Assembly: GCA_964458565.1 (NCBI GenBank)
Contig: CAYWJO010000036.1
Coordinates: forward strand, 1-35,349
Origin: an uncultured archaeon
GTDB taxonomy: Archaea > Asgardarchaeota > Thorarchaeia > Thorarchaeales > Thorarchaeaceae
Length of the DNA: 35,349 bases
Reading direction: 5' to 3'
A program made the position numbers and the translations under genes. The notes beneath the pieces are model-generated. The model saw only the letters and a program-made list of their open reading frames with translations, was not told the DNA's origin and searched no databases. Each line of letters begins with the position of its first letter. The stretch's first letter is position 1. Positions 27,552-31,516 of this stretch are shown here, piece after piece.

Positions 27552-28013
27552 CTACAATTCCATACTGAGTTTCAATGCAGTCAGGAATGCATCATGACCT
27601 TCAGATAAGATAGGCTGAGTGGATTTAAGGTCAATCCAAGATAGGTCAAAAATAATTCGTTCAGGAGTTTGAGGGAGTATGATACTCGGGTCTTTTTCCT
27701 CCTGAATCCATGTAGTAGGAGTTTCTTCAATACATTCGATATGAAAGAAATGACGTTTGTGAAATTCGTCCAACCCATATTTTCTTTGATCATTAAGTAT
27801 TGATCCCAAGAAATTCACAATCTTCAGTTTTCGTAATCCAGTTTCCTCTTCGGACTCCCGGAGTACTGCTTGGTCTAGTGTTTCAGATTCTTTCGGAGAG
27901 CCTGCAGGGACCTGTTTTCCAAATGACTCGAAACCACGTTCTACAAACACTAACAGATTTGTTCCTTTCGTGATATAAGCGAAAACCTTGTTTTTTACAG
28001 AAAATCTATTCAT
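27552..28013 (-). CDS. NUDIX hydrolase
   Basis: QVPAGSPKESETLDQAVLRESEEETGL Nudix box; KVFAYIT and RHFFH. Confidence 0.9.
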   Translation of the reverse strand: MNRFSVKNKVFAYITKGTNLLVFVERGFESFGKQVPAGSPKESETLDQAVLRESEEETGLRKLKIVNFLGSILNDQRKYGLDEFHKRHFFHIECIEETPTTWIQEEKDPSIILPQTPERIIFDLSWIDLKSTQPILSEGHDAFLTALKLSMEL

Positions 28014-28094: not shown

Positions 28095-28613
28095 TTAGAT
28101 TTTGTATTTATCAACGATCTGCTGGGCGATTTTAGTGAAAGTGTCAGCTACACCTTCATTAAGTTTGACTGAAGCTTCAATATACTCAGCTCTCATGTCT
28201 TTTGCACGCTTCATACCTTCTGCAGAGGATACTACTCTTTCGCTTTCCAGATCTGTTTTATTAGCAACAATTAGGCAGGTGTAGTCTTTCAAATGATCCG
28301 TTACTTCCTTCTTCCAAGCTTCAAGCTCCTCGAGCGTTTCTCGTCGAGTCACATCGAACATGTATACTACGCCTCTTGCGCCACGATAGAACTTGGACCT
28401 GACTTTACCAAGGAAATCTTGACCTCCAAGATCCCAAATTTGAAGCCGTACATTATCAGAGCCAATATCAACCTGCTTGGTTGCAAAATCAGCCCCTAAT
28501 GTTGGTGCATAATATTCTCTAAAGGTTCCACTAGTATATCGCAGAATCAGGGATGTCTTTCCTACTGCAGATGCGCCTACTGTAACTACTTTGAAGAGAT
28601 ATGACGGGGACAT
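28095..28613 (-). CDS. Rab-like small GTPase (Ras superfamily)
   Basis: G1 GASAVGKTS, G2 YAPTLGADF, G3 WDLGGQ, G4 NKTD, G5 EASVK; FYRGA and FDVT Rab-type motifs; no C-terminal Cys. Confidence 0.95.
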   Translation of the reverse strand: MSPSYLFKVVTVGASAVGKTSLILRYTSGTFREYYAPTLGADFATKQVDIGSDNVRLQIWDLGGQDFLGKVRSKFYRGARGVVYMFDVTRRETLEELEAWKKEVTDHLKDYTCLIVANKTDLESERVVSSAEGMKRAKDMRAEYIEASVKLNEGVADTFTKIAQQIVDKYKI

Positions 28614-28677
28614 TACACCTAACCTTATCCAATTGGATACATTCGACTAGTTCAATCTTTCGAACCAGTTGACTATA

Positions 28678-29028
28678 TTATCCCCCCAAAAGATCTCTTT
28701 GCAAATCTGAGAAGAATTCAGGTAAAGCACTGAGAAAGTCAGCAATATTGACTTTTTTCTTGGTAATGTCTTCCGGAAGTGAAACATCCAACAAACGTGA
28801 TAGCACCAGTACTGTGAATCGAGATGCGTTACTCAAACGTGAATATCTACTAATGAAATCCATTAACGCCTCTGGTGGGTCTTGGTACATCTCCTCTTCG
28901 GGAAGTGTATCCAGCAAGCTCACACCAGATTTAGTGCAGAGTTCTACAATTTCCTCACGCCCGTATATCGTCTGACCTCTTCTACAAATCATGGATGCTA
29001 ACTCTCGTATTTGTTTAGTTGCACTCAT
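28678..29028 (-). CDS. Small helical hypothetical protein in the GTPase operon
   Basis: 11 nt downstream of the longin-protein stop, GGAG SD, natural composition. Confidence 0.75.
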   Translation of the reverse strand: MSATKQIRELASMICRRGQTIYGREEIVELCTKSGVSLLDTLPEEEMYQDPPEALMDFISRYSRLSNASRFTVLVLSRLLDVSLPEDITKKKVNIADFLSALPEFFSDLQRDLLGG

Positions 29029-29039
29029 CTTTTATCTCC

Positions 29040-30314
29040 TCACTTGGCATTTGCAGATATTGTTTCCAACCAAAATGCAAACTCTTCAAATCCCCTTAGA
29101 TCCTGTTCAGAATATCGTTCGAGTAGGTATGAACTATATGCCCCAACCAGAGAGTCAACATATTTCCTCACCTTCTTAACATCAAGTAGACCTACGAACT
29201 GTGCTAGTAATTTCATCCATTCGGAATACAAATCCATAAGTCTCTTAGGATCAAGCCCTTCGTACAAACGTGATTCATAATCTACCCACCAGCGATCATC
29301 AGTATGTTTTATCTCTCCTACTACCTCAGGTACCGAAACCTTTCCTAGCGCAAACTCAAGAACTTTATAGGCATCTGGCGACGAATAAACCTTCTCAGCC
29401 ACTTTTAGTGCAATGTCAAATGCTTCCTTAACCAGCAATATTCTGCGCTTCTCGCTAGAGAGCGCCTCAATTACGTTTACCTCAAGTAGATAATCAATTG
29501 CTTGAATCAAGTCGCGTTCATCATATTGTTCTGACAGTGACTTCACAATGATATCAACTGTTCTTCGACCATCAAAGAGACCTGCGAGTCGAGGAAGGAC
29601 AGATACAATATCAGGATGAAGCCGCTCGAGTTCTATTCTTTCCTGCGATGATGTCTGAAGCAATCTACTGATTCGTGAAGTGGAAATTACAATATCACTT
29701 GTATCAATGAGACTCCTGAAGCTGATTACTCCGATAGCCCATAATCGAGAGATTTCACTGATTACTTCTTCTCGTCGCAAGCCACTCTGCATTATAATAC
29801 CCTCAATAGATCTCATACCATCGATGTATGGTGCAAGAAGAGTTCCACCTTCGATTGATGGAGTTCTGTCGGAGTCTATTGTGAATGGAACCCATTTTGG
29901 AGACACCTCTCTAAAAGACAGATTCTGTATTACTTGATCTCGAAATTCTGTGAAGCTATTGTGAATATCTAAACGATCCTTCTCATTAGTTGAAAGTTTT
30001 GACCATTCAGACTCATATCTGCGTAATAATGAACCTAAAACAGGGGTTATGCTTTCCAACCATGATCCAACACTTACAGACACTAAGTCCAATTGAGTAC
30101 TTGATATAACTGTGAACAATCGGGCACCATAATCTACCTGAAACTCAGAGGCTCCCTTTTCTATCACTTCCCGTGAAAAGGACTGAACTGCAGTGAAAAA
30201 TCCCGATACTAGCATGGGATCAAGATCAGTAGCTTTTGGGTCCAGCTTCATAAGAAACTGAGGAATTCCACCTTTGTCCATAATCAATATTGCTTGGATA
30301 CTGTGCCCCAGCAC
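29040..30314 (-). CDS. NPRL2/Npr2-like protein: longin domain, tandem winged helices, helical C-terminal domain
   Basis: N-terminal ILIMDKGGIP...DPMLVSGFFTAVQSFSREV longin-type pattern; two wHTH units (PYIDGMRSI...LWAIGVI; FDGRRTV...YLLEVNVI); GAGGT SD before GTG. Confidence 0.72.
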   Translation of the reverse strand: MLGHSIQAILIMDKGGIPQFLMKLDPKATDLDPMLVSGFFTAVQSFSREVIEKGASEFQVDYGARLFTVISSTQLDLVSVSVGSWLESITPVLGSLLRRYESEWSKLSTNEKDRLDIHNSFTEFRDQVIQNLSFREVSPKWVPFTIDSDRTPSIEGGTLLAPYIDGMRSIEGIIMQSGLRREEVISEISRLWAIGVISFRSLIDTSDIVISTSRISRLLQTSSQERIELERLHPDIVSVLPRLAGLFDGRRTVDIIVKSLSEQYDERDLIQAIDYLLEVNVIEALSSEKRRILLVKEAFDIALKVAEKVYSSPDAYKVLEFALGKVSVPEVVGEIKHTDDRWWVDYESRLYEGLDPKRLMDLYSEWMKLLAQFVGLLDVKKVRKYVDSLVGAYSSYLLERYSEQDLRGFEEFAFWLETISANAK

Positions 30315-30441
30315 ACGAAGAACCTCACTTGAGGAATAATCTGACTAGTAATAAGCTATACGCCACTTAGGCTGGTTGATAGAATTTAAATCAGTCAGAT
30401 TCGTAGGAGAGACATCATTATATTAACAAGGTTGGAATGAA

Positions 30442-30774
30442 ATGTCGAAAGGGAAGGCAATTGGTATAGTACTTGTTATTGCTATTGTTGCAATAGGTAT
30501 TGTAGCATGGCATGATGGCCTCTTTGGTGTTACTCAAATCAGGGACATCAATCAAGGAGATATTGACGTAGGCACAGCTGTTACAATAAAGGGTGAACTG
30601 ACAGCCAGATTAGGTAATCTTGTCACTGTAAACACAGGCTCGAATTTTGTTGCGTTTCTATGGGAAGGTGAAATACCACCACTGCACTCAATAGTTGTTG
30701 TTCGAGGAACTGTGGAATCATTCATCTCTTTAACTGATGTGACATCGGTTGATGCAGTCTGGATATTTCAGTAA
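30442..30774 (+). CDS. Membrane-anchored OB-fold-like protein
   Basis: N-terminal TM; TQIRDI...GTAVTIKGEL...VVVRGTV OB-fold pattern. Confidence 0.65.
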   Translation: MSKGKAIGIVLVIAIVAIGIVAWHDGLFGVTQIRDINQGDIDVGTAVTIKGELTARLGNLVTVNTGSNFVAFLWEGEIPPLHSIVVVRGTVESFISLTDVTSVDAVWIFQ

Positions 30775-31003: not shown

Positions 31004-31516
31004 ATGACAGCTGAATCTGAACCGATACCAGAAAATTATGTATTCCCAGCAATATTAGCAATATTCAATTTTGTTGTACTGCTACCAATGGCTTTGAATA
31101 GCATGAGTTATTCCACTGATATTTGGGATTTCATCTTTGTAGGAATTGGATTATATCTCTCATACAAATTCGTTAAGTACACATCACAAGCACATGAATA
31201 TCCACAAACTAGAATGAATCCACAGGATGTTGATGAGATAATAGATCAAGGAATCTATGCAGATGTAAGGCATCCTGTCGCCGCAGGATTACTATATATG
31301 AATATAGCCTATGTTTTCTTGTTTAGAAGCACTGCAATCATTCCGGTTATTCCCATGTTTTTCGCATTGTGGTTTGTGTTTGCTAAGTATGAAGAAAGGA
31401 TTTTGATTGAAAGATTTGGTGATAAATATAGGGAATACATGCAGAGAGTTGGTATGTTTCGTGGAAAGGGTAGTGCGAGTCAAACCAGGCTAGCAGGTAC
31501 TGGATACGAAGTCTAG
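31004..31516 (+). CDS. Isoprenylcysteine carboxyl methyltransferase / PEMT-family membrane protein
   Basis: GIYADVRHP and EERILIERFGDKYREYMQRV motifs with TM helices. Confidence 0.85.
   Translation: MTAESEPIPENYVFPAILAIFNFVVLLPMALNSMSYSTDIWDFIFVGIGLYLSYKFVKYTSQAHEYPQTRMNPQDVDEIIDQGIYADVRHPVAAGLLYMNIAYVFLFRSTAIIPVIPMFFALWFVFAKYEERILIERFGDKYREYMQRVGMFRGKGSASQTRLAGTGYEV

Follow-up and report, generated by a model that had tools for sequence, protein, structure and literature searches.

We analyzed a 35,349 nt contig (CAYWJO010000036.1, assembly GCA_964458565.1) from an uncultured Thorarchaeaceae archaeon with a 93% complete genome; this whole stretch is referred to below as the window. Its minus strand carries three neighboring genes for an NPRL2-like protein, a small helical protein and a Rab-like GTPase. 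An earlier sequence-only reading had proposed these genes as a GATOR1-like module of regulator, adaptor and GTPase, and the list of open reading frames (ORFs) confirmed the co-directional and tightly packed arrangement it described, with products of 424, 116 and 172 amino acids (aa) and intergenic gaps of 11 and 64 nt.

29040 to 30314, minus strand: NPRL2-like gene, ORF of 424 aa with a GTG start
28678 to 29028, minus strand: small-subunit gene, ORF of 116 aa, all-helical product
28095 to 28613, minus strand: Rab-like GTPase gene, intact ORF of 172 aa, product without a C-terminal cysteine

Shine-Dalgarno-like motifs (GGAG, AGGTG and GAGGT) are located 4-8 nt ahead of the starts of the three genes, and the GTG start of the 424-aa gene aligns with the methionine start of its orthologues. 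We propose, with a probability of roughly 60%, that the trio constitutes one conserved Thorarchaeia GTPase module in which the NPRL2-like and small proteins together grip the switch face of the GTPase and set or read its GTP/GDP state. Conservation of the trio, fusion of two of its parts in paralogues, duplication of the operon as a unit and a predicted interface carry this proposal; actual binding and the direction of regulation are what we infer from them.

Homologues of the 424-aa protein number at least 184, all named hypothetical and mostly from Candidatus Thorarchaeota. Within the same Thorarchaeia family, 65 of 85 other genomes scored encode a homologue at E ≤ 1e-10, while full-length homologues beyond the host family are few and limited to four other Asgard families. 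Using the single sequence, a Pfam HTH_NPRL3 match (aa 160-184, E 2.4e-4) stayed below the cut-off and only weak NPRL2 matches were obtained from the PDB (E 0.18). A family profile built from 49 sequences retrieved human NPRL2 at E 5.3e-6 (profile 80-231 against NPRL2 119-266) and yeast Npr2 at E 0.028, and the hidden Markov model (HMM) alignment revealed a PYIDGxR stretch ('lpyIDG.r.i..I') common to the family profile and NPRL2. Pfam NPR2 (PF06218) did not match the 424-aa protein by hmmscan, nor any protein genome-wide at E ≤ 1. The AlphaFold2 (AF2) model of the protein has a mean predicted local distance difference test score (pLDDT) of 81, and its 13 best Foldseek matches in the PDB are all NPRL2, NPRL3, Npr2 or Npr3 chains (E 1.4e-7 to 4.7e-4, 340-440 aligned columns). 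The alignments cover the whole length although the global template modeling score (TM-score) is only 0.25-0.30, a discrepancy that we read as possible hinge differences between domains. Three regions can be distinguished in the protein:

29907 to 30314, minus strand: longin domain, aa 1-136, from AF2 secondary structure and VIA-align
29460 to 29846, minus strand: two winged-helix-like repeats, approximately aa 157-285, with the PYIDGxR stretch, from the AF2 model, the HMM alignment and the sub-threshold HTH_NPRL3 match
29043 to 29459, minus strand: C-terminal helical domain, aa 286-424, the predicted GTPase-binding face, from complex prediction and conservation

The longin domain has a beta-beta-alpha-beta-beta-beta-alpha topology in the model, and VIA-align superimposed residues 1-136 on the longin domains of synbindin, Bet5, Sec22b, VAMP7 and an Asgard longin (Z 10-12.6, root-mean-square deviation 3.0-3.5, 114-128 residues aligned). 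The proposed longin/winged-helix, NPRL2-like nature of the protein is thus borne out by both profile and structure searches. Conserved longin motifs in the family alignment are GGxP (aa 15-18), D25-P26, P33 and Y62-G63-x-R65. In the C-terminal domain, E288, R291, G408, E410 and E411 are invariant and the motifs DLRGFEEFxFWLE and EKRR are found; a protein-atlas feature search with this domain (aa 286-424) gave no usable match.

A single full-length NPRL2-like gene and a single small-subunit gene were found in this genome. Elsewhere in it, G000:C4:100236-100814 (locus L002) weakly resembles the NPRL2-like protein (24% identity, E 4.8e-4, aa 32-218) and contains two in-frame TAA stops; it could be a longin/winged-helix gene that has decayed or is unrelated. 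Further, a very divergent NPRL2-like gene (23% identity) was seen in genome G096 of another Asgard family (L064:2111-4796), where small GTPase genes lie on both sides on the opposite strand and the small helical subunit is absent.

The 172-aa protein is clearly Rab-like, matching Pfam Ras at E 2.3e-46 versus 7e-7 for Gtr1_RagA. Its closest solved relative is Thor-Rab (7ezb, E 4e-36), followed by Rab3A, Rab21 and Rab1. As the sequence-only reading had held, the GTPase is intact: the GxxxxGKT P-loop, T38 of switch I, DxxGQ (Gln65), NKxD and SVK are all kept, and they are invariant in 21 syntenic orthologues. Its C-terminus (...VDKYKI) is devoid of cysteine, the prenylation motif of eukaryotic Rabs, and the same is true for the orthologues. 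No extra domain such as roadblock was detected in the 172-aa protein by Pfam scan or PDB search. Among the 19 small GTPase genes of the genome, this is the only one adjoining the NPRL2-like gene.

The 116-aa protein turned out not to be the separate adaptor that had been suggested. Paralogues of the NPRL2-like protein of about 526-560 aa carry a C-terminal extension which aligns with it (BLASTP, 37-38% identity over 82 residues, E 2e-19 and 4e-19). Judged from this sequence homology, the 116-aa protein is a split-off C-terminal domain of the NPRL2-like protein, a detachable tail that is fused in paralogues, and not an independent third component. The domain is rare, with only 35 cluster representatives recovered by an exhaustive profile search of 1.84 billion proteins, and occurs either free-standing (about 100-118 aa) or at the C-terminus of long paralogues. 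Its AF2 model is all-helical (pLDDT 81), and R17 (within the RRGQTIYG motif), G35, Y62 and P85 are invariant. Nothing was found for it in Pfam or NCBIfam, fold searches reached at best E 2.3 (Foldseek, PDB) and Z 5.7 (VIA), and the protein-atlas feature search returned unnamed clusters only, at 0.86. A likeness to the N-terminal helices of V4R proteins in the ESM Atlas was rejected as too weak (TM ≤ 0.50), and profile matches of 1614 aa and 243 aa were discarded as repeat or leucine-rich repeat artefacts. One metagenomic protein, P0132 (328 aa), starts with a small-subunit domain followed by about 220 residues. It had been suspected to be a GTPase fusion, a suspicion that we dropped because this tail has no Pfam match and is longin-like by eye; P0132 either represents a further case in which the small-subunit domain is joined to a longin protein or stems from gene calling that merged neighboring genes.

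Gene order was compared in 27 other Thorarchaeia genomes with an orthologue of the 424-aa protein. The small gene directly follows the large gene in all 26 orthologous loci with room for it, and an orthologous GTPase gene (58-67% identity) comes directly next in 20 loci and one gene further in 4. The trio is thereby retained in about 25 Thorarchaeia genomes of many genera, in the same order and on the same strand, and the three-gene unit proposed from the window alone holds across Thorarchaeia. Five loci of one genus (L010:3202-4248, L014, L021, L023 and L025) carry an inserted gene of about 350 aa after the small gene, which in L010 belongs to the PF00144 beta-lactamase family (E 4.5e-20) and has an N-terminus that looks signal-peptide-like by eye. 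Loss of the GTPase in this genus was considered and rejected, as in four of the five loci the GTPase gene follows on the same strand beyond the PF00144 gene.

The fused 526-560-aa paralogues have a GTPase gene of their own next to them in 10 of 11 loci. These GTPases are 50-53% identical to the GTPase of the window (P0003), whereas every other GTPase of those genomes and of this one reaches at most 46%. As they are thereby the closest paralogues of P0003, we conclude that duplication affected the operon as a whole and that the partners have remained paired. Relatives have two or three NPRL2-like paralogues, each in its own operon. A maximum-likelihood tree places all GTPase-linked members in one group (ultrafast bootstrap 96, Shimodaira-Hasegawa-like approximate likelihood ratio test 100).

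The other close members, from Thorarchaeia and two further Asgard families, form a sister clade. Here, the layout is constant as well and consists of the NPRL2-like gene, an ODP gene encoding a di-iron metallo-beta-lactamase fold (PF19583, E 5e-53) and a small helical gene whose product has a polybasic tail. No GTPase gene was found within 3 kb of these ODP-linked loci, of which the following represent related genomes:

L065:2965-5369, ODP-linked locus
L066:2986-5341, ODP-linked locus
L060:2986-5299, ODP-linked locus
L063:1815-4185, ODP-linked locus

The small subunit thus accompanies every close family member, GTPase-linked or ODP-linked. As the pair is constant in both clades, its two subunits make up the invariant core and the third component is exchangeable. 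The ODP layout hints at gas or redox sensing as an input to this core.

Interaction of the three proteins was assessed by complex prediction using family alignments, with GTP included and the GTPase as the scored partner. Three runs scored 0.82, 0.80 and 0.75 (median 0.80), with a partner pLDDT of at least 88 and at least 77% of contacts common to the runs, while the best of three controls scored 0.00. When the method was calibrated, 58 of 80 solved complexes passed, as did 2 of 110 mismatched pairs; these figures apply only roughly here given the custom alignments and the added GTP. We know of no solved complex between an NPRL2 C-terminal domain and a GTPase, and recall of GATOR1 structures therefore seems an unlikely source of the passing score. 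The prediction supports binding of the trio to one another.

On the GTPase side, the predicted interface comprises residues 15-16 (P-loop), 34-44 (switch I) and 65, 67, 71 and 74-75 (switch II). The large subunit contributes residues 288, 291, 325, 360-372 and 407-418, all within the C-terminal helical domain, and the small subunit contributes residues 16-17 and 19-20 of its RRGQT motif. The interface coincides with the most conserved residues of both subunits, including E288, R291, G408, E410 and E411. Residues of the longin domain are absent from the contacts, of which the tool lists only the confident ones. The sequence-only reading had pointed to longin domains as GTPase-regulating platforms; in the prediction the confident contacts are made by the C-terminal helices and the small subunit.

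Based on these results, the NPRL2-like and 116-aa proteins would act as one unit, the small protein being the C-terminal domain of the large one made separately. This unit would hold its dedicated Rab-like GTPase by the nucleotide-sensing face (switch I, switch II and the P-loop edge) through the C-terminal helical domain (EKRR, DLRGFEEFxFWLE) and the RRG helix of the small subunit, leaving the longin domain free for dimerization or for another partner. In this way it would set or read the GTP/GDP state of this one GTPase. Our preferred version is a GTPase-activating protein (GAP)-type regulator that would provide its GTPase, which possesses the catalytic Gln65, with the arginine it lacks. Candidates, none of which we assign as catalytic, would be R291 or R407 of the large subunit and R16 or R17 of the small subunit, as judged from conservation and the model. 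Nearly all members sampled retain R291, and 11 of 14 other GTPase-linked members sampled retain R407, this position being acidic or alanine in the ODP-linked clade. After the GAP role, we rank an effector role slightly ahead of a guanine nucleotide exchange factor (GEF) role. More tentatively, and with odds well below even, the module could represent a new type of Rab-family regulator, in which an NPRL2-type C-terminal domain and an RRG helix, rather than a longin domain, engage the switch face and P-loop, and in which the same core can have as its partner a GTPase or, alternatively, an ODP di-iron (O2/NO-type) sensor.

Several points weigh against this proposal. The complex is a predicted model, and because only confident contacts are reported, a longin contact may exist in addition. 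In 3 of the 14 other GTPase-linked members, position 407 holds valine, isoleucine or lysine, an unusual variation for a catalytic finger. Members of the ODP-linked clade have no adjacent GTPase gene and still retain the RRG and GFEEF motifs, which may thus serve as structural contacts of one subunit with the other. Binding of helices to the switch and interswitch regions is just as characteristic of Rab effectors, and the invariant E410-E411 at switch I would be in keeping with a GEF.

The alternative that survives best, although we consider it rather improbable, is an effector or scaffold role in which the GTP-bound GTPase recruits the pair and the longin and winged-helix domains relay the signal to another GTPase, a membrane or DNA while the nucleotide state remains unchanged. 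A helical surface lying on switch I, interswitch and switch II, modeled with GTP, resembles many Rab-effector complexes; the longin surface goes unused in the model despite its conservation, and pairing of the same core with an ODP di-iron sensor protein in the sister clade suggests exchangeable inputs. However, the confident interface includes P-loop residues 15-16 and Gln65, a footprint commoner for a GAP or GEF than for an effector, and the homologue NPRL2 is itself a GAP subunit.

A canonical GATOR1-type mechanism, in which the longin domain, probably as a dimer, is the catalytic platform and provides an arginine finger to the Rab-like GTPase, is less likely still and in our view doubtful. 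NPRL2 Arg78 is the finger acting on RagA. We take the arginine fingers of NPRL2 and FLCN to reside in the beta4-beta5 loop of the longin domain, beside the beta1-beta2 loop with its GP motif, with Arg78 at this place in NPRL2. An NPRL2/NPRL3-like architecture and fold and a longin fold are present in the 424-aa protein, as this mechanism would have it. The loop that would correspond (aa 72-74; S-S-T-Q) holds no conserved arginine. All 49 aligned sequences have R65 of the YGxR motif, but it sits in the beta3-beta4 hairpin and is lost in divergent members. This hairpin should point to the opposite end of the longin sheet from the finger loop. GAP longins carry a GP motif in the beta1-beta2 loop (PMC12290439), and at this place the family has a near-invariant G16-x-P18 (GGIP, GGSP, SGLP), which may speak for a GATOR1-type mechanism and is one residue longer than GP. 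Against it stand the lack of longin residues among the confident predicted contacts and a search with a longin-only profile, which found no NPRL2 in the PDB and gave chance rows only. With a single full-length copy in the genome, no NPRL3-like partner was found either.

Mere chance adjacency or shared transcription without a physical or functional link, for which one could cite that the flanking NUDIX gene is co-directional too, is close to refuted by the comparative data, given that the genes keep their order and strand in many genera, paralogues carry the partner as a fused domain, duplication involved the operon as a whole, the flanks are not conserved and binding is predicted with clean controls.

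The surroundings of the trio were inspected as well. Upstream of the NPRL2-like gene, the following elements were read from the sequence:

30322 to 30390, minus strand: upstream region of the NPRL2-like gene, with TATA-like TTTAAAT (30384-30390) and Shine-Dalgarno-like GAGGT (30322-30326)

Situated some 70 nt ahead of the first gene, TTTAAAT is a candidate promoter element, a reading made by eye and without an archaeal promoter model. Sequencing data sets listed as containing the stretch were DNA only, from salt-marsh metagenomes, one of which may be the source of the contig; no RNA data set was among them. Downstream, a NUDIX hydrolase gene (window 27552-28013, minus strand) starts 81 nt after the GTPase gene on the same strand with no T-run in between, and may be co-transcribed with the module in this genome. 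A 110-aa ORF with an N-terminal hydrophobic helix and no Pfam match (window 30442-30774, plus strand) is divergent from the module. About 700 nt upstream of the module, a gene for a 170-aa membrane protein (window 31004-31516, plus strand) shows weak matches to PEMT/ICMT (isoprenylcysteine carboxyl methyltransferase family; E 1.6e-6 and 7e-6). In the flank comparison, no counterparts of the NUDIX and ICMT-like genes were found at related loci, and the 110-aa ORF adjoins the module in only one related locus, from the nearest genus (L022, 54% identity). A gene for an RHH protein upstream of the trio is absent from the window. As the flanks are not conserved in relatives, all three were rejected as module parts and the unit therefore consists of three genes.

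Among known systems, one of the closest is the Asgard NPRL2-like family reported by Liu et al. (bioRxiv 10.1101/2020.10.19.343400), which has the same longin and NPRL2-type C-terminal regions and the same taxonomic range. The sequence-only reading had anticipated that the family might have been surveyed and that novelty would reside in the organization of the trio; the Thorarchaeota NPRL2-like family is indeed already known and the operon is new. The parts of the preprint available to us give an account of the family without the operon, the split or fused subunit, the ODP-linked clade or the binding mode, and the accessible portions of papers returned by a full-text search on Asgard NPRL2, GATOR1 or longin operons do not describe the operon. 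To the known family, our analysis adds an operon that is conserved and has been duplicated, a subunit that is either split off or fused, a Rab-like GTPase dedicated to the module and a predicted mode of binding unlike the longin mechanism of GATOR1.

GATOR1/SEACIT, in which NPRL2-NPRL3 (Npr2-Npr3) serves as the GAP for RagA/Gtr1, likewise combines a longin domain, winged-helix repeats, a C-terminal domain and a small GTPase. In contrast, the GTPase described here is a 172-aa Rab-like protein without the C-terminal roadblock domain of Rag-type GTPases, the presumed finger position holds no arginine and contact is predicted via the C-terminal helices and a separate small subunit. Neither DEPDC5/Iml1 (PF12257, no match at E ≤ 1) nor a second, NPRL3-like longin subunit was found in this 93% complete genome. 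Of the GATOR1-like label, the NPRL2-like subunit and its link to a GTPase therefore stand, while an NPR2 match, DEPDC5/Iml1, an NPRL3-like subunit and a Rag-type GTPase were not found for the module. The module is not a GATOR1 complex but shares an ancestor-like subunit architecture and GTPase coupling with NPRL2/NPRL3.

Other longin proteins acting on small GTPases include FLCN-FNIP and C9orf72-SMCR8 (PMC12290439, PMC8213707), which have GP where G-x-P is found here. SMCR8-C9orf72 binds ARF1 via the 'spoon bowl' of its longin domains, a surface that differs from the one predicted here. The Asgard operon of a LAMTOR1-like protein, a Rab-like GTPase and a DENN protein (Liu et al.) also represents a conserved pairing of a longin- or roadblock-type regulator with a Rab-like GTPase, although its regulator family is a different one, with DENN being absent from the present module.

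Asgard genomes encode dozens of small GTPases along with longin and roadblock proteins, almost none of which can be matched to a regulator from gene layout (PMC10933270). The operon supplies a matched GTPase, NPRL2-like protein and small subunit together with a predicted interface and a short list of residues, and makes it testable whether, and via which surface, NPRL2-type proteins regulated GTPases before eukaryotes. The result would bear on the origins of GATOR1, folliculin and C9orf72-type regulators. If the more tentative reading as a new type of Rab-family regulator is correct, C-terminal engagement of the GTPase could be an early or a lineage-specific mode of NPRL2-type proteins, and the exchangeable ODP or GTPase partner would link redox or gas sensing to GTPase-type signaling in Asgard archaea. 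Thor-Rab (7ezb; Tran et al. 2024, PMC10933270), the closest solved relative of the GTPase and also a Rab-like Asgard protein, is probably a different paralogue. In the same study, the GTPase genes of MK-D1 were generally located outside longin/roadblock operons, making their partners hard to assign, and the operon described here is an exception to this pattern.

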